This document shows, one piece after another, positions 4,161 to 28,243 of a DNA stretch of 64,000 bases. The notes beneath the pieces were generated by a model. That model searched no databases. It worked only from the letters and a program-made list of their open reading frames with translations, and was not told the DNA's origin. A program made the position numbers and the translations under genes. The number at the start of each line of letters is the position of its first letter. The first letter of the stretch is position 1. This DNA comes from an uncultured Spirochaetia bacterium (GTDB lineage: Bacteria > Desulfobacterota_D > UBA1144 > Nemesobacterales > UBA2774): contig CAZPHQ010000003.1 of assembly GCA_964586675.1 (NCBI GenBank), forward strand, positions 66,233 to 130,232, read 5' to 3'.

Positions 4161-6224
4161 TCATTTTTTCGCGGTTTTACCCGTTTTCTTTTTCGCGTTC
4201 ATGTCGAGCACCTCTTTCGCTTTCGCGACGACGTGGTCAACTGTAAATCCGAACTCGGGAAGAAGGGCGCCAATGGGAGCCGATTCCCCGAACGTGCTTA
4301 TCCCTATCACTCCGCCCCTGTCGTATGAGCCGACGTACCTCCGCCATCCGAAAGTGGAGCCGGCCTCGACCGACACCCTAGCATGAACGGAAAGCGGCAG
4401 CACCTCCTCCCAGTACTCGGGCCCCTGCATTTCGTAGAGCGACCAGCAAGGCATGCTCACCACGCGGACATTTACGCCCTCTTTCTTTAAGACTTCGTAC
4501 GCCCCGAGGCAGAGCTGAACCTCGGAGCCCGTGCCTATGAGTATTATCTCGGGCTTTTTACCGCTGTCGGCAAGTATGTAAGCTCCCCTGAGCGCTCCCT
4601 CGGCCGGGGCGTAGACGCTCCTGTCGAACGTCGGGATGTCCTGCCTCGTGAGTATGAGCGCGACCGGGCGGTCTTTAACTGTCATTATGTATTTCCATAG
4701 CTGGCTCAGCTCGTTCGCGTCGGCCGGCCTTATGACGTCGAGGTTCGGAATGGCGCGGAGCGACGCGAGATGCTCTATAGGCTGGTGCGTCGGGCCGTCT
4801 TCGCCGAGGCCGATGCTGTCGTGAGTGAATATGAAAACGACCGGGATGCGCATCAGGCACGCGAGCCTGAGAGGCGCCCTCATGTAATCGGAGAAAACAA
4901 AGTAAGTCGCGGTGTAGGGCTTGAGCTTGCTGAGACACATTCCATTCGCAGAGGCCGCCATGGCGTTTTCCCTTATGCCGAAGTGAAAATTCTTTCCGTC
5001 GTAGATCCCTTTCTCGAAGCTGGCCGCGCCGTCGATGTAGGTCTTGGTCGAAGAGCCGACGTCGGCCGCGCCGCCTAACAGGAACGGATACACGGGGACT
5101 ATGGCGTTCAGTATCTTACTATTTGCTGTACGCGTCGCCGGGCCTTTCGGATTCGGCGGGAAAACGGGCAGCACCTTTTCCCATCCCTCCGGCATTTCCC
5201 TTTGCTGCAGCCTCCTGAATTCCTTCGCGAGGTCGGGATAAACTTTTTCGTAGGCGCTGAACTTCTTGTTCCATTCGTCCTCGGCGACAGCGCCCTTTCT
5301 TATAACGGTTTCCCTGTACTCCTTCACTTCCTCGGGGACGTAAAACTTTTTGTCCGGGTCCCAGCCGTAGTTTATTTTTGTCTTCCTTATTTCTTCTTCG
5401 CCGAGGGGTTCGCCGTGTGCGGCCGAGGTGTCCTGCTTGTTCGGGCTCCCGTATCCGATGTGGCTGTCGACGATTATCAGCGAGGGCTGCTCGTTTTCGT
5501 GAAGCGCCCTCTCGATTGCTTCGGAAAGTAATTCTAGGTCGTTCGCGTCGCCTACTCGCTGAACGTGCCAGTTGTATCCCATGAACCTCGCGGCGACGTC
5601 CTCGCTGAAGGCTAGTGCGGTGTGCCCTTCGATGGTGATGTGGTTGTTGTCGTAAAACCATATGAGGTTACTCAGGCCGAGGTGCCCCGCGAGCGACGCC
5701 GCCTCGCCCGATATACCTTCCATCATGCAGCCGTCGCCGCATATGGCGAATATGTTGTAGTTGATTATCTCGTGGCCCGGCTTGTTGAAATAGGCTGCGA
5801 GCCACCTTTCCGCTATCGCCATGCCGACGGACGTGGCGACGCCCTGGCCGAGTGGGCCCGTGGTCGTTTCGACGCCGGGGGTGAGGCCGTATTCCGGGTG
5901 CCCCGCGCACTTACTGTGGAGCTGCCGGAAAGTTTTAATGTCGTCCAGGGAAACGTCGTATCCCGTCAGGTGAAGGAGGCTGTAAAGGAGCATCGAGGCG
6001 TGGCCGTTCGAAAGGACGAAACGGTCGCGGCCGGGCCAGTCCGGGTTCTTCGGATTAAATTTCATGAACCTGTCCCATATCGCGAACGCCACCGGCGCAA
6101 GCGCCATCGGCGTCCCCGGGTGGCCGGAGTTGGCCTTCTGAACGGCGTCCATCGAAAGGGTGCGTACGGTATTTATTATGAGCTGCTCGAGCTTGTCTAT
6201 TTTGCCTTTTGGGATTGAATCCAT
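4161..6224 (-). CDS. tkt: Transketolase.
   Basis: 687 aa. The N-terminus has ANSGHPG and MALAP motifs. TPP-binding GDG and HDSIGLGEDGPTHQP motifs are also present. Confidence 0.9.
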   Translation of the reverse strand: MDSIPKGKIDKLEQLIINTVRTLSMDAVQKANSGHPGTPMALAPVAFAIWDRFMKFNPKNPDWPGRDRFVLSNGHASMLLYSLLHLTGYDVSLDDIKTFRQLHSKCAGHPEYGLTPGVETTTGPLGQGVATSVGMAIAERWLAAYFNKPGHEIINYNIFAICGDGCMMEGISGEAASLAGHLGLSNLIWFYDNNHITIEGHTALAFSEDVAARFMGYNWHVQRVGDANDLELLSEAIERALHENEQPSLIIVDSHIGYGSPNKQDTSAAHGEPLGEEEIRKTKINYGWDPDKKFYVPEEVKEYRETVIRKGAVAEDEWNKKFSAYEKVYPDLAKEFRRLQQREMPEGWEKVLPVFPPNPKGPATRTANSKILNAIVPVYPFLLGGAADVGSSTKTYIDGAASFEKGIYDGKNFHFGIRENAMAASANGMCLSKLKPYTATYFVFSDYMRAPLRLACLMRIPVVFIFTHDSIGLGEDGPTHQPIEHLASLRAIPNLDVIRPADANELSQLWKYIMTVKDRPVALILTRQDIPTFDRSVYAPAEGALRGAYILADSGKKPEIILIGTGSEVQLCLGAYEVLKKEGVNVRVVSMPCWSLYEMQGPEYWEEVLPLSVHARVSVEAGSTFGWRRYVGSYDRGGVIGISTFGESAPIGALLPEFGFTVDHVVAKAKEVLDMNAKKKTGKTAKK

Positions 6225-7956: not shown

Positions 7957-8670
7957 ATGAGTAAGGCTGCGTTAATCACAGGCGGCGGCATGAGGCTCGG
8001 AAAAGCCATGGCGCTTACGCTGGCCGAAATGGGTTACGACATAGCCCTTCATTACAACAGCTCCGCGTCCGAATCGGAAAAAACCGCGGGTGAGATAAGG
8101 AGCCTCGGCAGGAGCTGCGAGATATTCAAGGCGGATCTCCTTAAAATGGAAGAGGTCAGAACTCTCGTTCCCCGCGTCTTTGAGGCATTCCCCGGGTGCA
8201 GCGTCCTTATAAACAGCGCCTCCGTTTTCGAGAATATCCGCTTTCCGGACGTGACTGAAGAAAGCTTCGACAGGGATATGAACATAAACTTCAAGGCGCC
8301 GTTTTTCTTGTCCCAGGATTTCGCCAGGGGAGCGTCCGCCGGGCTTATCGTCAACATGCTCGATTCCCGCGTATCGACCAACGCTACGAGCTACTTCGTA
8401 TATCACCTCGGCAAGAAGGCGCTCAGGGACTTTACGCTCATGGCCGCGAAGGCGCTCGGACCGCGTATACGCGTAAACGCTATATGCCCCGGTCCGGTCC
8501 TCCCGCCCCCCGGAGAGGGCGAGGAGTACCTCATACGCATCTCGCAGGATACGCCCATCGGGAAGCCCGGAAGCCCGGAATACATAACGGCCGCGTTAAA
8601 ATATATAATCGAAAACACGTACATCACAGGTGAGTGCCTCTTCGTAGACGGGGGGCAGCACCTTCTCTAG
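7957..8670 (+). CDS. Short-chain dehydrogenase, FolM / pteridine-reductase-like.
   Basis: Rossmann N-terminus ITGGGMRLG. YxxxK motif (YHLGK). The C-terminal TGECLFVDGGQHLL resembles the FolM/PTR1 C-terminus. The gene lies directly upstream of folB and folK. Confidence 0.65.
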   Translation: MSKAALITGGGMRLGKAMALTLAEMGYDIALHYNSSASESEKTAGEIRSLGRSCEIFKADLLKMEEVRTLVPRVFEAFPGCSVLINSASVFENIRFPDVTEESFDRDMNINFKAPFFLSQDFARGASAGLIVNMLDSRVSTNATSYFVYHLGKKALRDFTLMAAKALGPRIRVNAICPGPVLPPPGEGEEYLIRISQDTPIGKPGSPEYITAALKYIIENTYITGECLFVDGGQHLL

Positions 8671-8682
8671 GCGGAAGAGCTG

Positions 8683-9030
8683 ATGATAATAAACATAGAG
8701 AATTTGAGACTCAGAACCGTAGTCGGGATATTCGAATGGGAGAAGAACGTAAAGCAGGACATCATCATCAACATCGAGATAGAATTCGACGGCGCGAAGG
8801 CAATTGAAAGCGACGACATCGCTCACACGATAGACTACAAATCGATCACGAAGAAGATCATCGCCGAGGTTGAAGAGAGGGAATATAACCTCATCGAGAA
8901 AATAGCCGGCGACGTCGTGAGAATTATCATGGAAGACGAAAGGGTCGAAGCGGCGGCAGTCAGGATAGACAAGCCGGGGGCGCTCCGATTCGCAGACTCG
9001 GTTTCCGTTATACACACGGAGTCCAGATAA
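8683..9030 (+). CDS. folB: Dihydroneopterin aldolase.
   Basis: 115 aa with a FolB-like pattern (LRL.VGIFEWEK......SDD...TIDY). Confidence 0.8.
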   Translation: MIINIENLRLRTVVGIFEWEKNVKQDIIINIEIEFDGAKAIESDDIAHTIDYKSITKKIIAEVEEREYNLIEKIAGDVVRIIMEDERVEAAAVRIDKPGALRFADSVSVIHTESR

Positions 9031-9043
9031 AAACCCCAATCAA

Positions 9044-9433
9044 ATGAAAACCAACCTGGCAGTCCTCGGACTGGGCTCGAACATCGATCCCGAAGAGAAT
9101 ATCCACAAGGCGACGGAGATGATCCGCGCCGAATTCGGCCTTATAAAAATTTCCTCTTTCATCACGACAGAGCCCGTGGGATTTAAAGAGCAGGCCCCTT
9201 TTCTAAACGGAGCCCTCCTCATTGAAACGGAACTGGACGCGGCGGCGCTCAAGATTCGCCTGAGGGAGATCGAGACCGCTCTCGGGAGGGTCAGAGCGGA
9301 AAACAAAAACGGCCCGCGTACTATCGACCTCGACATACTGGTATGGAACGGCGAGGTCGTTGACGACGACGTCTACGAGAGGGAGTTTCTCAAATCCTCT
9401 ATAGTAGAGCTTCTTCCCGGCTTTATCTTTTAG
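9044..9433 (+). CDS. folK: 2-amino-4-hydroxy-6-hydroxymethyldihydropteridine pyrophosphokinase (HPPK).
   Basis: LGLGSN....I..A......L.KISS.Y.T.PVG...Q..FLN...L.ET and RTIDLDIL motifs. Confidence 0.85.
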   Translation: MKTNLAVLGLGSNIDPEENIHKATEMIRAEFGLIKISSFITTEPVGFKEQAPFLNGALLIETELDAAALKIRLREIETALGRVRAENKNGPRTIDLDILVWNGEVVDDDVYEREFLKSSIVELLPGFIF

Positions 9434-9972
9434 CGGACGTGCTTTTTTATGAGAGTGTTCGAAGGCAGGGAGGGATCGAGCACCTTCCGGGCCGTCTCCA
9501 CCCCGGCGACGGGGAGCCTTTCGGGATCGAGGAGTCCGACCTGCACCAGCACCGACGCCTGGTCCCAGTAAATGTGCTCGCTCGCGATCTTCCCGTCTTT
9601 GAATCCAACGACGACCGCGATGGGAATCTCCACCCTTTTTCCGGTCGGCGGTATACCCGGCAGCATCCACGGCATGTCTACCGTGTGCGTGAATTTAAAT
9701 ATCAGCTCGTCGACGATAGCATCGCTCCCCACAGTGCGCGAGACCGGCTCGATCTCGACGTCCGGGGGCTGGCAGGGAATGAACCAGGTCGAGTAAAAAT
9801 CGACCACGTTTTCGGTCCCGTATCCGCCCGTCATGACGGGAACGTGATTCACGTGCGGGCCGCCGCTCATGGTCTTCATGGTGTCCTCGACATTCTTCGT
9901 CGCGAACTCGCAGTCCGTATGCTCCGTCCAAAGATCGACCATATTCTTTTGTTCAGGCGTCATATCGCTCAT
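9430..9972 (-). CDS. SnoaL-like / NTF2-fold ester-cyclase family protein.
   Basis: 180 aa. The C-terminal motif DGKIASEHIYWDQASVLVQVGLL is typical of SnoaL-like ester cyclases. It lies downstream of, and co-oriented with, the FAD monooxygenase. Confidence 0.5.
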   Translation of the reverse strand: MSDMTPEQKNMVDLWTEHTDCEFATKNVEDTMKTMSGGPHVNHVPVMTGGYGTENVVDFYSTWFIPCQPPDVEIEPVSRTVGSDAIVDELIFKFTHTVDMPWMLPGIPPTGKRVEIPIAVVVGFKDGKIASEHIYWDQASVLVQVGLLDPERLPVAGVETARKVLDPSLPSNTLIKKHVR

Positions 9973-10065
9973 TGCCCCCCTCCGCTCAACTTACTTACGG
10001 AAAGTATATTACGAATTCATTAACCCCGAAATCCGGCGAGGCGAACGAGTATTGGAAACGGGCCG

Positions 10066-11730
10066 TCAAACGAAAATTCCCTGAAGATATTCCTCGAGGT
10101 CGTCGAGACTCGCGGGCTGGTTCCTGAACCCGACGTACCCGTCCGGGCGTATCAGGTATAGCGACGCCCTTCCCGCTCCGAAGTCCTTATGCATGTGAAG
10201 CTCCCCGTCGGTCCATACGGAGCTCATGGTCTTGTAATCATCGGGCACGCCCTTCGGCCCGGCGACGACGTGTATATCCACGAGCCCTTCGTACTCAGCC
10301 ACGACGGCGACGTGGATTTTTCTCAGCTCGTCGAGCTCCATGTCCTCGGGATCGCCCCCCGTGAAGAGTAGGAGATTGTGAATCCCGTTCCTGAGAAGCC
10401 CGTAGAGGTTTCCCTCCCCGCCGGATAGGTCTTTGAGACGATAGTCCCTAACCCTCTCGCCAGCCGTGAGGTCGTGCCTGTAGCCGTGGTAGCCTTCGGC
10501 CATATCGGGCTGATACCATCTCTCGGATACCACGGGACTCTCCTTGTAATGTATCTCGACCTGCGAGAGCGTGGCGATAAGCTTTTCCTGAACCGCGTCG
10601 ATGCGGGACGCGATACCCACCACCTTGTTCCTTATCGCAGCGAGTACGGGGTTCTGTATACCGGCCATGCGCGTCGCCTTGTCCGTCAGGCTGACGACCT
10701 CCTCGCCGACGGGGTGCCGCTCGGCGTTGTAGCTGCCCAAGAGTGACTCCTGGGATTTCCCTTCGAGCACGAGCGCGAGCTTCCAGGCAAGGTTATAGGC
10801 GTCCTGTATCCCCGTATTCATACCCTGCCCGCCCATGGGGCTGTGTATGTGCGCGGCGTCGCCGGAGAGGAAAATCCTTCCGTCGCCGTACCTCTCGACC
10901 ATCCTGTGATGGAGCCTGAAATAGGCGAGCCAGTTGGGATCGGTAACGCTCTTGTATTTTATCTCCCTCTCGCCCATGAGTCTCTTCACGTCGTCGAGCG
11001 TGGGATCGGGCATCTCCTCGGTTACGGGCGCGTCCTGGAGCTCGAACATGAGCCGGCCCCTGTTTTTGTAGAGCGGAAAGTAAGCCGTGATTCCTTTCGG
11101 ATGAACGAACGCAGAGAGGTGGTGAAACGGGTATTCCCAATCCAGATCGCAGTCCGCCAGGAGCCAGTAGTTGGGATAGGGAGCCCCTTCGAACTCTAGC
11201 CCGAGAATATGCCGGACAGTGCTGTGCGACCCGTCGCACCCGGAGACGTATGCGCTTTCGATTATCTCTTCGGAGCCGTCGGGGAGCTTCACGTGCGAGC
11301 GGCACTTGTCCGCGCCCCTGTCTATCGCGAGCAGCTCCTTTTCCCTCTCGACATTTATGCCGTAGGATTCGAGGCGCTCGTTGAGTACCTTCTCCGTGTC
11401 GCTCTGGGCGAGTATAAGGAGGTAGGGATACTTACTCTCTATCGAGCTGAAGGAAAGGCTCGCGAGCGGCCGCCCGCGGTCGTATATGTCGAAGCCGTTG
11501 CATATGTTGCCCCCGTCGAGAACGGAGTCTATGAGGCCCATGTTCTCGAAGACCTCCATCGTCCGGGCGTGGATGCCGAAGGCCTTCGACTTGTCCGAAG
11601 GAGCTGAGGCCTTGTCGATTATCCTGAACGAAATACCCCTTCGGGCGAGCTCGCAAGCCATCGTGAGCCCTGTCGGGCCCGCGCCGATTATAAGAACCCC
11701 TATACCGGAACCTGACATTTTAGCCTCCAT
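10066..11730 (-). CDS. FAD-dependent aromatic-ring monooxygenase (PheA/TfdB-like).
   Basis: The N-terminal GxGxxG (VLIIGAGPTGL), the DG motif and the GD...H FAD-binding motifs are present. 554 aa. Confidence 0.8.
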   Translation of the reverse strand: MEAKMSGSGIGVLIIGAGPTGLTMACELARRGISFRIIDKASAPSDKSKAFGIHARTMEVFENMGLIDSVLDGGNICNGFDIYDRGRPLASLSFSSIESKYPYLLILAQSDTEKVLNERLESYGINVEREKELLAIDRGADKCRSHVKLPDGSEEIIESAYVSGCDGSHSTVRHILGLEFEGAPYPNYWLLADCDLDWEYPFHHLSAFVHPKGITAYFPLYKNRGRLMFELQDAPVTEEMPDPTLDDVKRLMGEREIKYKSVTDPNWLAYFRLHHRMVERYGDGRIFLSGDAAHIHSPMGGQGMNTGIQDAYNLAWKLALVLEGKSQESLLGSYNAERHPVGEEVVSLTDKATRMAGIQNPVLAAIRNKVVGIASRIDAVQEKLIATLSQVEIHYKESPVVSERWYQPDMAEGYHGYRHDLTAGERVRDYRLKDLSGGEGNLYGLLRNGIHNLLLFTGGDPEDMELDELRKIHVAVVAEYEGLVDIHVVAGPKGVPDDYKTMSSVWTDGELHMHKDFGAGRASLYLIRPDGYVGFRNQPASLDDLEEYLQGIFV

Positions 11731-11896
11731 TGCCGGCGGGGACGGAGCGAAAAACCGGAAGACCCGATGCGCGGCGCGGTGAATTTATTCCGGCGAATAA
11801 ATTATACAAACCTCCGCGCGTCAGGCCAAATTTATCCCGGCATTCGGTTTCACATCAGTTATAAATTGGCGTCGGGCTCGCTGAAAAGCGCGCCGA

Positions 11897-12961
11897 TCAT
11901 TTGCCGCCGGAGGAGAGGCCGGCCAGCTTCCCGATCGGCCCCGCGGGGTCTATAACTTCCTTTAAGGCCGAATACGGAACCGTAACGAAGTAAGAGCCCT
12001 CGGCGTATGAGCCGACGGCGTACGGGGCGAAGGCTATCGATATGCCCCTCGGGGAGACGGCGAACGCGCCGAGGTCATCGGTGCCGAGCTCTTTTAACTG
12101 GCCGTCGACGACCCATCCTGCATTTTGCCTGCGAAGCTCGTTGATGCAGTAATCCGAGAGCGTTTTAAGGTAATTCGAGTTAAGTAGAAAGAGATCGGAG
12201 AGCTTCAGCAGGACGGGCTTTCCGTCCTTTATCCAGTAATTCGAAGACATGTAATTGGTGTTGCCGTGCGCGCCGCCGCTGTATACGAATATTTCCCCCG
12301 ACAGGCTCACGAGATCGCTGGAGTAGAACTCGACGGCGTAGTTATATCTCTCCTGCCATTCGGCCCTCGCTTCTTCTGTCTTGAAGTATTCCTCCGCCTC
12401 TTTCGTGAACCTCGCCTGCTCGGCTAGAGCGTTCTTTTCGAGGTCCTTCGAGATCTCCTCGAACGGTTTCAATCCCGAAATGAAATCGGGATACATGTAC
12501 GACATCTCGTATTTCCCGCCGGCCTTCGTTTCAGACCAGATGTAGTATGCGACCTTATTCAGCTTGAAAGGTATCTTGTCCTTCCCGCCGGCCTTCATCC
12601 ATTTCCCTTCGATCGTCTTCGCGTAGTTGGTCCCCTCGGATTCGAGCTTCCCGGCGAAGGTCCCCGTCCTGTTGCCCTTATCGTCCTGCTCGACGAGGGT
12701 GACGATGGAGGTTTCCGTATCGATGCTGCCCGTAAGCGAAAGCGGCGTTCCTATTTTGTCGTACATGTAAGAACCCGTGACGCCGGATGAGTCCATCACA
12801 AGCTCCATCTGTATCGAGAGACCGTCGCCCAGTATCCCCGTGTAGTAGTACCTCGATTCGGGGCGGTCATCTTCCTGGCTTGAGACATTCGCCGGCGCGG
12901 CGAGGGCCGAGAAAAAAAGCAGCATGGCTAGGGCGCCTGCAATCCGCTTCCACGTTTTCAT
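11897..12961 (-). CDS. Secreted DUF3298/DUF4163-like (RsiV-like) protein.
   Basis: N-terminal signal peptide MKTWKRIAGALAMLLFFSALAAPA. A YSGGAHG motif typical of DUF3298 is present. Confidence 0.5.
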   Translation of the reverse strand: MKTWKRIAGALAMLLFFSALAAPANVSSQEDDRPESRYYYTGILGDGLSIQMELVMDSSGVTGSYMYDKIGTPLSLTGSIDTETSIVTLVEQDDKGNRTGTFAGKLESEGTNYAKTIEGKWMKAGGKDKIPFKLNKVAYYIWSETKAGGKYEMSYMYPDFISGLKPFEEISKDLEKNALAEQARFTKEAEEYFKTEEARAEWQERYNYAVEFYSSDLVSLSGEIFVYSGGAHGNTNYMSSNYWIKDGKPVLLKLSDLFLLNSNYLKTLSDYCINELRRQNAGWVVDGQLKELGTDDLGAFAVSPRGISIAFAPYAVGSYAEGSYFVTVPYSALKEVIDPAGPIGKLAGLSSGGK

Positions 12962-21683: not shown

Positions 21684-22340
21684 TTGTCCAGGTCCGAGAG
21701 GATACGGAAATTCTACGACGAGCTCTACAAAAAATACGGGCCGCAGGGTTGGTGGCCGGGGGATTCTCCGCTCGAATGTATAGTCGGGGCGATACTCACC
21801 CAGAGCACGTCATGGAAGAACGTCGAGAAGGCGATTTCCAACCTTAAAAACGAAGGTCTCCTTTCGGTCGATAAGCTAAGCCTGGTTACGGCTGAAGAGC
21901 TCGCCGAGATGGTGCGCTCCTCGGGCTACTACAACCAGAAGGCCATTAAGATCAAGAATTTCATTTCGTTTCTTAACGCCGGCTACGGCGGGAGCCTCGA
22001 AAAGATGTTCGCGGAAGAAAAATCCGTCCTTAGAGAAAAACTTTTATCCGTAAAGGGCATAGGGCCTGAAACGGCGGACAGCATATTGCTCTACGCGGGC
22101 GGCATGCCGGTGTTCGTGGTGGATGCGTATACGTGGCGGGTTTTGTCACGGCACGGGATCGTTCCGGTGGAGACGAATTACAGCGAGATGCAGGAGGTTT
22201 TTACGGATTCCCTCGACGAGGACGCCGGGCTGTTCAACGAATACCACGCGCTCATTGTAAGGCTGGGAAAAGAGCACTGCCGAAAAAGTCAGCCAATTTG
22301 CGCAGGCTGCCCGCTGGAATTTGATCCGCACTCGGTGTGA
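21684..22340 (+). CDS. HhH-GPD superfamily DNA glycosylase (endonuclease III-like / MagIII-like).
   Basis: 218 aa with a helix-hairpin-helix segment (LLSVKGIGPETADSILLYA) and a catalytic Asp region. The C-terminus has only three Cys of an FeS-type cluster (C-x6-C-x2-C) and then ends. Confidence 0.7.
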   Translation: MSRSERIRKFYDELYKKYGPQGWWPGDSPLECIVGAILTQSTSWKNVEKAISNLKNEGLLSVDKLSLVTAEELAEMVRSSGYYNQKAIKIKNFISFLNAGYGGSLEKMFAEEKSVLREKLLSVKGIGPETADSILLYAGGMPVFVVDAYTWRVLSRHGIVPVETNYSEMQEVFTDSLDEDAGLFNEYHALIVRLGKEHCRKSQPICAGCPLEFDPHSV

Positions 22341-24804
22341 TGGATGTCAACATATCAAATTAGGACACCTTATTCTCTTTGCAATTTCTGCAATCTCTAC
22401 ACCGAGGAAGAAAATCATCTTTTTTAGAAGTCAAATTTTTCGGTTTCGTTTTCCAACTATGCCCATTGGGACACTTCAACCATATATTTGCAGAGGACGC
22501 CGGCCCGATTTCATATGGAGATAATCCGATATTCCTTTCATAATCCCAGTAAGAAGTTTTATTAGGAAATAGTGCTCCAAAGCTTTCTTCCAGTGATCTT
22601 TTAGCTCGGCTATCTATAGCACATTTACTACAACCATGTCCGGCAGCCTTATTGGCAATTGTGGAAAGTGTAACATGGCCTTTACTGAGACATTTAAAGT
22701 ATGCCTTTTTACCGGACCGAGATGAAACATCCTCTGGTCTTAAATCTCCATTCTTATCATAATCCCATTCTCTTGCGGCATTAGGAAATAAGTCTGCAAA
22801 GCTATTACCAGGTAGGGCTGTCTTCCTCTGACTCATGAGAAAATCAAACTCAGATTCGTTTTGAAACGATGTAGTGGAAAGATATGTATCAATCTTTTGC
22901 ATATGGCCTATATCTAAATGAACTCTTTTCTGTATTGCTTTTAAAATATTCTTGATAGTCGAGACGTTATTTATTTCCTTTGGAATGAGTAAATCATCAT
23001 CTTTCAATTTTTGTAGTCGTTTATCTCTTACTCGAATCAATACGATTTTATTGAGATTGAGCATTCTCTCCTTATTACGGTCATTATCCTCTTTGCCCTG
23101 ATGCCATGGATAACCATCATATTCAATTGCTAATTTATAATCCGAAACAAAAATATCACATTCACAGCCGAACATTTTATGACGGTGTTCAAGTGTATCA
23201 AATATCATCTTGAGTTCTGTATATATCCTAAGTTCAGATGCAGAAGTTTGAGAATAACAATTTGGACACCCCCTCCCACTGGCGGTTCTGTGGTTAACCG
23301 TGTCTTTCCATGTGTGTCCTTTCTTACATAACCACCATAAACTTTTATTTGAACATGGACTTATTTCACAAAGATTCAAGCTATGATTTTTTGAAGGATG
23401 CAACTCATTCGCTATTTCTGGAAAATTTTTTCGTAAGTTCCATTCTTGTGTTGCTAAATGTCCTGAACAATAAGGACAGCCACTTTTTCTGTTGGTTCTT
23501 TGGTTGGGACTAACTGACCAACTATGACCTTTCTCACATTTCCAAAAATATTTTTTTTGAGTTCCAGGAGCAATTTCATAAGGAGATTTTTGATTATTCT
23601 GATAATCCCACTCTTTCTCTAGAGATGGATATAAAGCGCCTAAAGAGTTGTGTCTAACTATTTTCTTGTTATTACAAATAGGGCATTGTCTTCCACGCCT
23701 TGTTCTATTACTAATACTAGCTTCAAATTCTTGCTTGCAAATATTGCATATCCACCACACACTTCTTCCTGATTTCATGGTTACATCCCATGGAGTTAAA
23801 TCACCATTTTTCGTCGGATGCCACTCATCGGCTTTCTCTGGGCAAGCCAAAGCCAAACAGTTTTTGCTTGGATTTCTTTTGCTGGTTATTCTTCCTGCAC
23901 ATATTGCACATCTCGTGCTTCTTCTTACCCTATCTGCAATTTTACATGACCATTGATATCCGCATACGCTACATATCCAATTCACCTTTTTGGCTGAGCC
24001 GTAAGATAAGTTCTCCGGCTCAAGACCTCCATTTTTCGAATAATCCCATTCGCTAAATATGTCCGGATAGTTAATGACAAAGGAGTTCTTTTCGGAAACT
24101 TTCCTACCCGAGCAATAAAGACAACCCTGACTATGTATCGTTCTATTAGAAATGTAAGCTTTCCATTCACCATTGCATCGTATGCACTTCCACCATACTT
24201 TTCTACGTGATCCATAACTAAAATCCTGAGGGTTTAAATTTCCATTACGTAACAGATGCCACTCTCTGACCAAATCGGGATAATTAACAATTAATGAGTT
24301 CCTCTTGGAAACTCTCTTTCCGGAGCAATAAGGGCATCCCTGTCCATGTATTGTTCTGTTAAAAATGTAAGTTTCCCATTCACCCTCACATTTTAAACAT
24401 TGCCACCATACCAGTTTATGTGACCCATAGGTAAAATTATCAGGACTTGCAATTCCGTTACGGGATGGATGCCACTCTTTAATCAAATTCGGATGAGAGA
24501 TTGATAGGTTTATATGATCTTCCACAAATATCTTATAGTACAGCAACTTAGAGTTTTGGTTTTATTTTATCATTCTAAGAATTTTGTTCATAGCCCAACC
24601 CGAAATGTAACCTTCCCCCCTAGTTTTTGGACATTAGTAAGGAATTTCATATACATACCGAAACCTGAAACTAAGAGAGAGAAAAGTCTTCTGCTTGAGA
24701 GAGAAACAACTTTGAAAATGCAGGTATCCGCTCGAATTCGACCCCCACTTCGTATAAACGGGGGAACTCAACCGGACCGATTTAGCTTTGAACCAGTGTC
24801 CTGC
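22341..24804. mobile_element. AT-rich (~35% GC) compositional island, probably a horizontally acquired insertion. It sits between the nth-like gene and the rplT terminator. No integrase or flanking repeats were identified.
   Basis: Sharp GC drop: windows at 23641-23700 are ~35% GC, windows at 21001-21060 are ~65% GC. The island carries a single large ORF. It lies immediately downstream of the conserved thrS-infC-rpmI-rplT operon. Confidence 0.55.
22360..24546 (-). CDS. Hypothetical 728-aa protein with eight tandem treble-clef zinc-ribbon repeats (DUF4379-like) and a central Vsr/DUF559-like PD-(D/E)xK nuclease domain. It lies in the AT-rich island.
   Basis: Repeat unit: P.L..EW(H/D)P.KNG.L.P.....S..KVWW.C..C.(G/H)EW......R....GCPYCSG. 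Four repeats have CxxC...CxxC and four have CxxGH...CxxC. Residues ~436-510 (nt ~23017-23241) read CDIFVSDYKLAIEYDGYPWHQGKE...DRNKERMLNLNKIVLIRVRD, matching the Vsr/DUF559 core. Local GC is ~35% against ~60% in flanking DNA. Confidence 0.7.
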   Translation of the reverse strand: MLYYKIFVEDHINLSISHPNLIKEWHPSRNGIASPDNFTYGSHKLVWWQCLKCEGEWETYIFNRTIHGQGCPYCSGKRVSKRNSLIVNYPDLVREWHLLRNGNLNPQDFSYGSRRKVWWKCIRCNGEWKAYISNRTIHSQGCLYCSGRKVSEKNSFVINYPDIFSEWDYSKNGGLEPENLSYGSAKKVNWICSVCGYQWSCKIADRVRRSTRCAICAGRITSKRNPSKNCLALACPEKADEWHPTKNGDLTPWDVTMKSGRSVWWICNICKQEFEASISNRTRRGRQCPICNNKKIVRHNSLGALYPSLEKEWDYQNNQKSPYEIAPGTQKKYFWKCEKGHSWSVSPNQRTNRKSGCPYCSGHLATQEWNLRKNFPEIANELHPSKNHSLNLCEISPCSNKSLWWLCKKGHTWKDTVNHRTASGRGCPNCYSQTSASELRIYTELKMIFDTLEHRHKMFGCECDIFVSDYKLAIEYDGYPWHQGKEDNDRNKERMLNLNKIVLIRVRDKRLQKLKDDDLLIPKEINNVSTIKNILKAIQKRVHLDIGHMQKIDTYLSTTSFQNESEFDFLMSQRKTALPGNSFADLFPNAAREWDYDKNGDLRPEDVSSRSGKKAYFKCLSKGHVTLSTIANKAAGHGCSKCAIDSRAKRSLEESFGALFPNKTSYWDYERNIGLSPYEIGPASSANIWLKCPNGHSWKTKPKNLTSKKDDFLPRCRDCRNCKENKVS

Positions 24805-24835
24805 CGGAAACAGCAAAGCCGCCCGAAGGCGGCCT
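24805..24835 (-). terminator. Rho-independent terminator of the rplT operon.
   Basis: On the minus strand: GGCCGCCuucgGGCGGC followed by UUUGCUGUUU, about 30 nt after the rplT stop. Confidence 0.6.
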
Positions 24836-24866
24836 CTTTGTATTCTATCTTAAAAAATCAGTATGC

Positions 24867-25220
24867 TCAGTTAAGCCCGCTTCTGGCGACGTCTACGACT
24901 GCCTTGAAGCTCTCGGGCTCCCTGATAGCCATTTCGGAAAGCGACTTTCTGTCGAGCTCGACGCCGGCTTTCTTGAGCGCACCCATGAAGCTGCTGTACG
25001 AAAGACCATAGGGCCTCACGGCTGCGTTGATCCTGACAATCCAGAGCTTCCTGAAGTCTCTCTTCTTGAGGCGCCTGTGCCTGAAGGCATAGGCCATGGC
25101 CCGGAGTACTGTTTCCTTGGCGCGCCTTACGTTATTCTTCCTTCTGCCCCAGTATCCCTTGGCGCTCTTAAGGAGCCTCTTTCTCCTCTTCCTGGATGCT
25201 ACCCCTCTTTTTATTCTCAT
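24867..25220 (-). CDS. rplT: 50S ribosomal protein L20.
   Basis: MRIKRGVASRKRRKRLLKSAKGYWGRRKNNVRRAKETVLRAMAYAFRHRR... matches canonical L20. Confidence 0.95.
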   Translation of the reverse strand: MRIKRGVASRKRRKRLLKSAKGYWGRRKNNVRRAKETVLRAMAYAFRHRRLKKRDFRKLWIVRINAAVRPYGLSYSSFMGALKKAGVELDRKSLSEMAIREPESFKAVVDVARSGLN

Positions 25221-27980: not shown

Positions 27981-28055
27981 TGGTGAGCACGGCAGGATTT
28001 GAACCTGCGACCTCTTGCGTGTCAAGCAAGCGCTCTCCCCCTGAGCTACGCGCTC
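27981..28055 (-). tRNA. tRNA-Val (anticodon GAC).
   Basis: The reverse complement folds as a cloverleaf: acceptor GAGCGCG/CGTGCTC (one G-U pair), D arm GCTC/GAGC, anticodon loop TTGACAC, T loop TTCAAAT. CCA is encoded. One extra G lies 5' of position 1. Confidence 0.85.
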
Positions 28056-28168
28056 CAAATTCAAAGAAGAGTGATATTTTCTTATATAATACCACGCCTG
28101 TCAAGCTGCGCCGAGCCGCGAATTTTTGCCACGGCACCCAAATTTTGGTAACCTTAGGCCCTATGCGT

Positions 28169-28243
28169 TGGGGCGTCGTCTAATTGGCAGGACTCAGGCC
28201 TTTGGAGCCTGCTGTGGTGGTTCGAGTCCACCCGCCCCAGCCA
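28169..28243 (+). tRNA. tRNA-Gln (anticodon TTG).
   Basis: Starts with the U1:A72 pair (TGGGGCG...CGCCCCA) typical of bacterial tRNA-Gln. Anticodon loop CTTTGGA, T loop TTCGAGT, discriminator G, and CCA encoded. Confidence 0.85.

Follow-up and report, generated by a model that had tools for sequence, protein, structure and literature searches.

The 64-kb stretch of DNA analysed here (the window) contains an AT-rich island that is inserted between two host genes and carries a single gene, encoding a 728-residue protein in which eight DUF4379 zinc-ribbon units surround a Vsr/EDxHD-like PD-(D/E)xK nuclease core. The reading that we favour, and hold at about even confidence, is that this is a horizontally acquired, free-standing site-specific DNA endonuclease of the Vsr/EDxHD homing-endonuclease lineage, most likely with a selfish lifestyle. 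The gene is a typical member of a very large family of nucleases that are probably selfish or conflict-related.

A foreign island between the HhH-GPD and rplT genes

The island (22341..24720) has 37.8% GC compared with a mean of 54.7% across the window, lies roughly 5 sd under the average for windows of 2.47 kb, and forms the sole stretch below 45% GC within the 64 kb. An initial annotation of this DNA had given the contrast as 35% versus 60%, and the contrast holds although those figures are slightly overstated; the right edge, which it had drawn at 24800–24866, falls instead at ~24720 by fine composition, and the left edge at ~22341. The island lies, as had been reported, wedged between an HhH-GPD glycosylase-like gene on the left (21684..22340, plus strand) and rplT on the right (24867..25220, minus strand; L20), the final gene of thrS-infC-rpmI-rplT, both of which are host genes outside the element. 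A GC-rich host hairpin, GCCGCCCGAAGGCGGC (24818..24833), is located between the island and the rplT stop codon and gives a terminator-like match; it is probably the original terminator shared by the convergent HhH-GPD and rplT genes, and L021, L031, and L062 have comparable hairpins at their empty junctions.

In ten relatives the HhH-GPD gene is followed directly by rplT, with gaps of 11–91 bp where measured, so the island is an insertion. This agrees with the earlier view of a compositionally foreign single-gene insertion rather than a core gene syntenic in relatives, and the ten empty junctions show the presence or absence at a conserved site between conserved genes that is expected of a homing endonuclease gene (HEG). 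The flanking proteins of the empty-junction relatives are only 61–85% identical, so the difference is not a within-species polymorphism, and when metagenomes were scanned for an empty allele from the same species, the best match was 69% identical, so that no close relative was found and the scan yielded only three more distant empty junctions. An assembly chimera was ruled out, as five independent assemblies share the same junctions.

In L024 this junction holds a different AT-rich cargo, encoding a KAP NTPase, which suggests a general cargo hotspot rather than an HEG target; in this lineage foreign cargo has landed at the rplT 3′ junction repeatedly. No DUF4379 match was found at the homologous site in 160 loci anchored on the HhH-GPD gene. 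We also considered and rejected a transposon or integrative element, as there are no significant terminal inverted repeats or target-site duplication at the island, no tRNA in or adjoining it, and no recombinase ORF (transposase or integrase) or Rfam family within it. The AT-rich region upstream of the island gene (24547..24720, minus strand) is presumed to be its promoter and 5′ UTR, and it contains no conserved ORF or sigma-70-like site and is not homologous to the sequences upstream of the gene's homologues.

Eight zinc-ribbon units

The one large ORF is on the minus strand (22360..24546, with the stop codon at 22360–22362) and is 728 codons long, as first annotated, when read from the most upstream start, TTG at 24546. 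Two other candidate starts are GTG at 24525 (721 aa) and TTG at 24486 (708 aa), and the public gene call uses the last of these, which truncates unit 1. Pfam DUF4379 (PF14311; gathering threshold 24.5 bits) matches the protein in eight stretches with 421 bits (E 3.7e-129), as had been anticipated, and all four units tested singly pass the cut-off, with 80, 64, 53, and 40 bits.

Six units lie N-terminal and two C-terminal to the core, in accord with the original description. PF14311, a unit HMM, and the ligand positions place units 1–6 at aa 12–435 (23242..24513, minus strand), with HMM envelopes at aa 12–79, 83–150, 154–221, 229–296, 300–365, and 369–435, and units 7 and 8 at aa 581–724 (22375..22806, minus strand), with envelopes at aa 581–647 and 654–724. 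Each has four predicted zinc ligands with treble-clef spacing, and the proposed division into two types of four is borne out: the putative ligands are CxxC...CxxC (Cys4) in units 1–4 and Cx2-3GH...CxxC (Cys-His...Cys-Cys) in units 5–8. In an alignment of homologues (A2) the ligand columns either do not vary or show conservation of 90% or more, and AF2 pLDDT is mostly >85 over units 1–6. Sub-threshold matches to CapR (PF21817) are seen in two of the four units tested, at 17–18 bits against a cut-off of 24.2.

We propose that each of the eight CapR-like zinc ribbons folds around one Zn, and that jointly they would form a modular DNA-binding array by which the protein stays on a target of some length. 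A recent tandem duplication of 213 nt, with 71% nucleotide identity between the copies, accounts for units 1 and 2.

A nuclease core related to a homing endonuclease

Between units 6 and 7 is a core of ~125 residues (aa 435–560; 22867..23244, minus strand), whose structure model is Vsr-like with high confidence and has the Vsr-type restriction-endonuclease-like fold. The only significant PDB match of the family profile is 3R3P, I-Bth0305I (E 2.1e-6), and the profile alignment equates E475, D477, H482, D489, and K492 of the core with E206, N208, H213, D222, and K225 of I-Bth0305I. The composite catalytic residues are E25/D51/H64/H69/D97 in Vsr and E170/D196/N208/H213/D222 in I-Bth0305I (PMC3239194); through the 3R3P alignment the core contains the E-D-x-H-D set at D464, D477, H482, and D489, with E438 placed by colinearity only. 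The putative active site comprises E438, D464, E475, D477, H482, D489, and K492, and in sets of 52 and 36 homologues the catalytic residues either do not vary or show conservation of 90% or more.

Pfam nuclease models give DUF559 (PF04480) at 13–17 bits, under its curated cut-off of 20.6, and MTES_1575 (PF18741) at 17–21 bits, under its cut-off of 38.2, and the Pfam Vsr model does not match the protein, so the predicted DUF559 or Vsr match did not materialise. PHROG families annotated as HNH or homing endonuclease match with E 9e-48. The assignment of a Vsr-like fold stands for the model and the conserved residues, but in sequence the core is nearest to a homing endonuclease and not to Vsr or DUF559, and where the initial annotation had offered a defence gene or a selfish element, this favours the latter.

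In the proposed mechanism, the Vsr-like domain would hydrolyse DNA between the two arms in a Mg-dependent reaction, with D464 and D489 as metal ligands and H482 as general base, nicking one strand or, if it dimerises like I-Bth0305I, cutting both.

Two other functions have to be weighed here. A host function, whether Vsr-type DNA repair by nicking at T:G mismatches or some other core housekeeping role, is highly improbable: the gene is missing from the junction in ten relatives and is strongly foreign in composition, there is no Pfam Vsr match and no cytosine methyltransferase partner in the island, and the closest homologues are non-syntenic. It is also quite unlikely that the protein is a domesticated or non-cleaving nucleic-acid-binding protein, that is a regulator or an RNA-binding or RNA-cleaving factor, in which the array binds RNA or DNA and the Vsr-like or RAP-like domain acts on RNA or merely as a scaffold. 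The only solved DUF4379 domains are those of the kinetoplastid mitoribosomal proteins mS66 and mt-SAF33, CapR is an HEG-derived repressor (PMC8096241), and relatives with units and no core exist (e.g. ORF43 of Bacillus phage BMBtp15), all of which would suit such a role; but every composite catalytic residue is kept and is invariant or nearly so family-wide, which is unexpected for a scaffold, and the phage and island ecology better suits a conflict over DNA.

A large family in mobile contexts

The full-length query has matches to more than 7,900 database proteins, and the core alone matches ~1,750 50%-identity clusters, making this a very large family with members in bacteria, archaea, phages, plasmids, and giant viruses; their settings are the replication modules of phages, plasmids, and islands that are mobile or rich in defence genes. 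Public annotations are 'zinc-ribbon domain-containing protein' or, wrongly, 'HNH endonuclease'. The architecture had been called unusual but is the family norm, as units flank an internal core on both sides in 107/120 top homologues and in 121/149 best core matches. Array length varies across the family from 0 to 12 units per side, and relatives reach 1,273 aa.

The three closest homologue groups (67–77% aa identity) are in three unrelated contexts, on contigs of uniformly low GC, which the GC of the island gene matches. DNA homology with them is confined to the ORF (24518..22376, 75–82% nucleotide identity), and dN/dS is ~0.2 over both units and core, from which we conclude that the gene is functional and under purifying selection. 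We envisage that a low-GC donor supplied the ORF alone, which entered the convergent HhH-GPD/rplT spacer.

Among phages, the Lietuvens member lies between helicase and primase genes, and that of mEp021 between replication protein and helicase genes in a slot that is polymorphic among sister phages. In mEp021 six such repeats are fused to a T5orf172/GIY-YIG-like domain, compared with a single repeat in its sister phage mEp013. A single-protein scan of viral contigs gave four loci, whose context was little informative. Record MT835483.1 was discounted as a phage context, since the neighbours are an alcohol dehydrogenase gene and transposases and the record is marked 'UNVERIFIED'. HEG-like proliferation into multiple copies was likewise dismissed: tblastn gave 5 'places' in MT835483.1 and up to 15 on plasmids, counts that are inflated because of the internal repeats, and a six-frame scan with the unit and core HMMs finds a single gene in each of MT835483.1 and the window.

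A more ambitious proposal, and one that we think unlikely, is that the DUF4379 units constitute a natural modular DNA-recognition code, each ~70-aa ribbon reading a few base pairs, with two arms of variable length positioning the internal Vsr-like nickase or nuclease and retargeting occurring by tandem gain, loss, or shuffling of units; the duplication of units 1 and 2 and the differing repeat numbers of mEp021 and mEp013 would be instances. If the arrays do read DNA modularly, the family would represent a new natural array-nuclease architecture, a counterpart of ZFN- and TALEN-type nucleases and a programmable scaffold.

Selfish element or defence gene

HEG descent is favoured by the phage replication-module slots, the PHROG annotations, the ORF-only homology, and the reported intron-borne relatives (PMC12350094), and a selfish HEG-like gene would persist and move through its own nuclease, which may additionally harm competing foreign DNA. 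Against it, related copies are not found at the homologous target site in other genomes, and the lack of a homologue at the same junction elsewhere, together with the unrelated contexts of the closest homologues, is contrary to the prediction of strict site-specific homing; the protein is also far larger than classical HEGs, and its Pfam nuclease matches are under curated cut-offs.

A possible but less probable alternative is a single-gene anti-phage or anti-plasmid nuclease, in which foreign DNA would be recognised by the array, from its sequence, modification, or structure, and broken down by the Vsr-like domain; the rplT/HhH-GPD junction would then be a hotspot at which defence cargo is swapped through homologous recombination in the flanks. 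The seven distant chromosomal homologues that were sampled are all in mobile or defence-rich regions, in keeping with the initial interpretation, and their neighbours include SIR2_2 (twice), McrBC with GIY-YIG and SRA-HNH, toxin-antitoxin pairs with a resolvase, and an AAA_21 ATPase with a group II intron RT. These neighbourhoods fit a defence role equally well, and that role is also favoured by the KAP NTPase, another conflict-type cargo, in L024, the purifying selection across differing genomic contexts, and the relatives in 149 plasmid records. However, context alone does not discriminate, because defence islands collect selfish genes too, many members are phage-encoded within replication modules, and the closest characterised relative of the catalytic domain is a homing endonuclease. 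The 'defence island' signature claimed at first has no tie to a known system: the known and candidate models of PADLOC-DB v2.0.0 give 0 families at E up to 1, and an NCBIfam search returned nothing useful. Nor does the island have a partner gene, methyltransferase, or immunity ORF, or any small ORF of note, and no cognate methyltransferase adjoins it as in a type II restriction-modification system, the neighbours being HhH-GPD and rplT. Should these proteins nevertheless serve in host defence, they would count as a single-gene system so far unlisted.

Comparison with known systems

Searches of the literature on PF14311 and on treble clef/Vsr combinations gave nothing on function, and no experimental characterisation of DUF4379 with a Vsr-like domain was found in the literature searched; to that extent the combination lacks a characterised function, as had been stated, but it had been noticed computationally before (PMC5513546, PMC12350094). 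One such case is a Lausannevirus/Insectomime 'putative restriction endonuclease' with four DUF4379 domains (PMC5513546), which has the same domain combination by annotation but is in a giant virus and has fewer units than the island protein. The kinetoplastid mS66 and mt-SAF33 and the apicomplexan RAP-domain proteins differ in being eukaryotic organellar ribosome components, with the two domain types in separate proteins and low identity (5–15% for RAP). From E. coli Vsr (PDB 1CW0) and DUF559/MTES_1575 restriction-endonuclease-like proteins (e.g. NGO0050, PDB 3HRL) the island protein differs in its Pfam scores under curated cut-offs, in having no Vsr-type mismatch-recognition N-terminus or dcm partner, and in being encoded by a foreign and sporadic gene.

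CapR, of a Vibrio PLE satellite, descends from the DNA-binding domains of HEGs and has been shown experimentally to bind DNA sequence-specifically in a manner that depends on its Zn motif, and CapR-domain T5orf172 HEGs occur in phage ICP1 (PMC8096241). The likeness is in a ~60-aa domain with a Cys-pair zinc motif that serves as a sequence-specific DNA-binding module of HEGs, although the CapR sequence match is weak and the nuclease of CapR-domain HEGs is of the GIY-YIG superfamily, whereas that of the island protein is Vsr-like.

I-Bth0305I is the prototype of the EDxHD homing endonuclease family (PDB 3R3P; PMC3239194), and placing the nuclease beside it provides testable catalytic residues. 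It is a 266-aa protein, intron-encoded in a phage recA, with NUMOD/HTH DNA-binding regions at the N-terminus and a C-terminal nuclease, whereas the 728-aa island protein is free-standing on a bacterial chromosome with its nuclease internal to eight zinc ribbons, and the 'x' of EDxHD is Asn in I-Bth0305I and Asp in the island protein. HEGs of group I and II introns in phages, carrying 3–5 CapR/DUF4379/DUF723-like domains and a C-terminal EDxHD/Vsr-like domain (PMC12350094), share the ~60-aa zinc-ribbon modules and the Vsr-like nuclease; they are intron-borne, whereas the island gene is free-standing and longer and has units on both sides of its nuclease. The same 2025 paper predicted that thousands of unannotated relatives form a 'large unrecognized outgroup of EDxHD/Vsr HEGs' (PMC12350094).

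An AT-rich insertion between the HhH-GPD and rplT genes

The 64 kb window contains only one low-GC stretch, from 22341 to ~24720, with a GC content (37.8%) ~5 standard deviations lower than the average for windows of its length; the window mean is 54.7%. A finer GC scan places its edges directly past the stop codon (22340) of an HhH-GPD glycosylase-like gene (21684..22340, plus strand) and at ~24720; to the right are a GC-rich hairpin (24818-24833, separating the island from the rplT stop codon) and the minus strand genes rplT, rpmI, infC, and thrS. A tRNA-Val (GAC, minus strand) and a tRNA-Gln (TTG, plus strand) lie just past the thrS start (27981-28243) and are unconnected with the island.

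The sole credible ORF in the island (hereafter the island gene; 22360..24546, minus strand) codes for 728 aa when counted from the most upstream TTG, the remaining ORFs being tiny or antisense to it. The position of its start codon is uncertain, with candidates at GTG 24525, TTG 24546, and TTG 24486, and no clear Shine-Dalgarno sequence precedes any of these (24486-24546). The public gene call of 708 aa uses TTG 24486, which falls within the first of the protein's DUF4379 (PF14311) zinc-ribbon units and truncates that repeat. Because homologues with an ATG start begin 13 residues ahead of the first 'IKEW' and DNA homology to relatives starts at 24518, sequence comparison makes GTG 24525 or TTG 24546 the more plausible start.

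The locus is identical in four Logan assemblies and differs by 7 SNPs over 12.7 kb in a fifth; its presence in all five rules out an assembly chimera. One of the 7 SNPs, in an assembly of the same species (L095; ERZ23498983), is an A to T change at 22362 that abolishes the island gene stop, so that translation continues into the HhH-GPD 3' end, antisense to that gene, and gives a 744-aa product.

Ten relatives, comprising seven genome MAGs (labelled Deltaproteobacteria, Thermodesulfobacteriota or 'Bacterium HR37') and three metagenome contigs, have an empty junction in which HhH-GPD (plus strand) is followed directly by rplT (minus strand). Identity of their flanking proteins to those of the window is 61-85%. 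The gap measures 11-91 bp at the seven genome loci for which it was determined, versus 2,526 bp in the window. The island is an insertion between HhH-GPD and rplT. Terminal repeats, a target duplication, a tRNA, a recombinase, and an Rfam element were each sought at the island, and none was found.

In a Candidatus Dadabacteria MAG (L024; JAJECI010000001.1) the same junction is filled by a different AT-rich insert of 1.9 kb (8637-10572), carrying a gene for a KAP-family P-loop NTPase (8961..10472, plus strand; Pfam E = 2.5e-33). Next to HhH-GPD there remains a second copy of the rplT 3' end (8696..8878, minus strand); this insert therefore entered inside rplT, bringing a replacement 3' end. Since L024 carries other cargo there, the junction appears to be a recurrent landing site, or cargo hotspot.

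Zinc-ribbon arrays and a Vsr-like nuclease core

The island protein matches Pfam DUF4379 in eight stretches (E = 3.7e-129), and four units tested singly all score above the Pfam curated cut-off. A unit HMM places units 1 to 8 at residues 12-79, 83-150, 154-221, 229-296, 300-365, 369-435, 581-647, and 654-724. The zinc-ligand pattern is CxxC...CxxC in units 1-4 and Cx2-3GH...CxxC, the majority form in the family, in units 5-8; units 1 and 2 are a tandem duplication of 213 nt with 71% nucleotide identity. In our view there is a small chance that DNA recognition by the arrays follows a modular code.

Between units 6 and 7 is a core of ~125 aa, described as Vsr/DUF559-like in the initial annotation, which took the lack of an HMM hit as grounds for rejection. 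By that measure the HMM evidence alone is weak, because the Pfam matches (MTES_1575 and DUF559) are both sub-threshold, and the Vsr-like nuclease identity is settled instead by a structure model and a profile search. The modelled core (52-sequence alignment; pLDDT 94.9, pTM 0.87) has the element order helix-strand-strand-strand-helix-strand, and when the entire PDB is searched with its profile, 3R3P (I-Bth0305I; E = 2.1e-6) is the sole significant match. In the predicted full-length structure (pLDDT 87.6, pTM 0.40) the domains are well predicted and their mutual arrangement is undefined.

Combining the printed core/3R3P profile alignment with the numbering in the I-Bth0305I paper (PMC3239194), D464 of the island protein corresponds to I-Bth0305I D196 and Vsr D51, D477 to N208 and H64, H482 to H213 and H69, and D489 to D222 and D97; E438 corresponds to E170 and E25 by colinearity only, and E475 is an extra acidic residue at the position of Vsr F62. 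Family alignments show S435, D464, D477, H482, and K492 to be invariant, and E438, E475, G478, D489, R505, and R507 to be at least 90% conserved. This conservation of the active site argues against a non-cleaving (purely regulatory) or RNA-directed role, which is suggested only by organellar relatives of both domain types and which we regard as decidedly improbable.

A large family in varied genomic contexts

A full-length search identified at least 7,989 proteins, with the same internal core in nearly all of the best 120 matches, and a core-only search 1,754 representatives of 50%-identity clusters (426 with E ≤1e-10). Units flank the core on both sides in 107 of the 120 top matches and 121 of the 149 best core matches, and range from 0 to 12 per side across the family, so that the layout of six units, core, and two units, initially thought unusual, is ordinary.

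The three closest groups of homologues (77%, 74%, and 67% aa identity) are in unrelated contexts on uniformly low-GC contigs (e.g. beside a PHO4 transporter in one group and a DUF4760 gene in another), and nucleotide homology with the window is confined to the ORF. Pairwise dN/dS among the four genes (the island gene and these homologues) is ~0.2 over units and core alike, indicating that the whole protein is under purifying selection. The sporadic occurrence and foreign character of the gene all but rule out housekeeping repair of the Vsr type, to which we give almost no credence. The contig of the closest homologue (L005) contains, among other unannotated ORFs, three of identical length (175 aa) without Pfam matches (4755-5282, minus strand; 9045-9572 and 11872-12399, plus strand), which might be copies of a repeated element or paralogues.

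All seven distant chromosomal homologues sampled are in mobile or conflict-rich regions, containing respectively SIR2_2 and a phage integrase; a resolvase, an LHH toxin, and a SUKH immunity protein; McrBC, GIY-YIG, and SRA-HNH; SIR2_2, with smpB in the same region; YolD, FtsK, and a helicase; toxin-antitoxin pairs and a resolvase; and a resolvase, a group II intron RT, and an AAA_21 ATPase. Such contexts fit a defence nuclease, a role that has no direct support and that we consider possible but rather unlikely. A SIR2_2-domain protein directly adjoins the DUF4379 nuclease gene in two of the seven (L090, 4478-6172; L106, 11292-14153), through either chance within defence islands or perhaps a recurrent association.

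Relatives are also present in 149 plasmid and 69 phage records. In Candidatus Paracaedimonas acanthamoebae, a symbiont of amoebae, the 71-kb plasmid CP008938.1 contains 10, 5, 1, and 8 units in four open frames (zinc-ribbon regions at L112 1687-3885 and 10938-14086); the core HMM finds no Vsr-like core in these frames, the PLSDB gene table has no CDS there, and they may be pseudogenes or core-less arrays.

Among the phages, Sporosarcina phage Lietuvens has a family gene between helicase and primase, and Listeria phage A511 gp39 is a minimal form with one unit and the core. The replication module of E. coli phage mEp021 encodes a protein of 495 aa, in which six zinc-ribbon repeats in tandem precede a T5orf172/GIY-YIG-like C-terminus (L101 3420-4907); the same slot is occupied in mEp013 by an orthologue of 178 aa that shares this C-terminus and has only one repeat (L103 1929-2465), and in mEp515 (L104 1186-1929) and mEp044 (L105 1927-3281) by Bro-N-like proteins. 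An HNH endonuclease gene beside this polymorphic slot varies in presence among the four phages. PHROG families matching the island protein are labelled HNH or homing endonuclease (annotation only), and a PADLOC search with the protein gave no match.

Relationship to homing endonucleases

We consider it likely that the island gene is foreign, intact, and selected, and that its product is a nuclease of the Vsr/EDxHD type with modular zinc-ribbon arrays, most probably DNA-binding, on either side. Its biological role is less certain than this molecular identity.

The founding member of the EDxHD homing endonuclease family, I-Bth0305I, is an enzyme that dimerises, contacts up to 60 bp, and cuts with a catalytic domain of the Vsr-like kind (PMC3239194). 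Homing endonuclease genes (HEGs) of phage group II introns described in 2025 have three to five CapR/DUF4379/DUF723-like domains of ~60 aa and a C-terminal EDxHD/Vsr-like domain, and thousands of unannotated relatives were called 'a large unrecognized outgroup of EDxHD/Vsr HEGs' (PMC12350094). In the Vibrio PLE satellite, the HEG-derived protein CapR binds DNA sequence-specifically, and a four-cysteine mutant of its zinc motif was put through gel-shift assays (PMC8096241). Four DUF4379 domains are also present in a 'putative restriction endonuclease' of Lausannevirus and Insectomime virus (PMC5513546).

The large size of the protein, the dissimilar surroundings of its close homologues, the failure to find it at the corresponding site elsewhere, and the alternative cargo of L024, which suggests a general hotspot, all weigh against the island gene being a selfish HEG-like nuclease. 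We nonetheless put the chance of this at about even, as the nearest characterised relative of the catalytic domain is an HEG, the zinc-ribbon modules are akin to HEG DNA-binding domains and are paired with more than one type of nuclease, members are known from phages and introns, and the ORF alone was transferred into an intergenic spacer, without mobility machinery.

The island gene is typical of the large family to which it belongs and not a new kind of system. In Pfam this family has only a DUF name, and related proteins have been predicted, in one recent paper, to form an HEG outgroup; the family is well defined, the literature searched yielded no experimental study of a protein combining DUF4379 with a Vsr-like domain, and the first experiments are obvious. 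Compared with the characterised EDxHD enzymes, the island protein is a clear variant, in which an internal nuclease lies between two zinc-ribbon arms of variable length.
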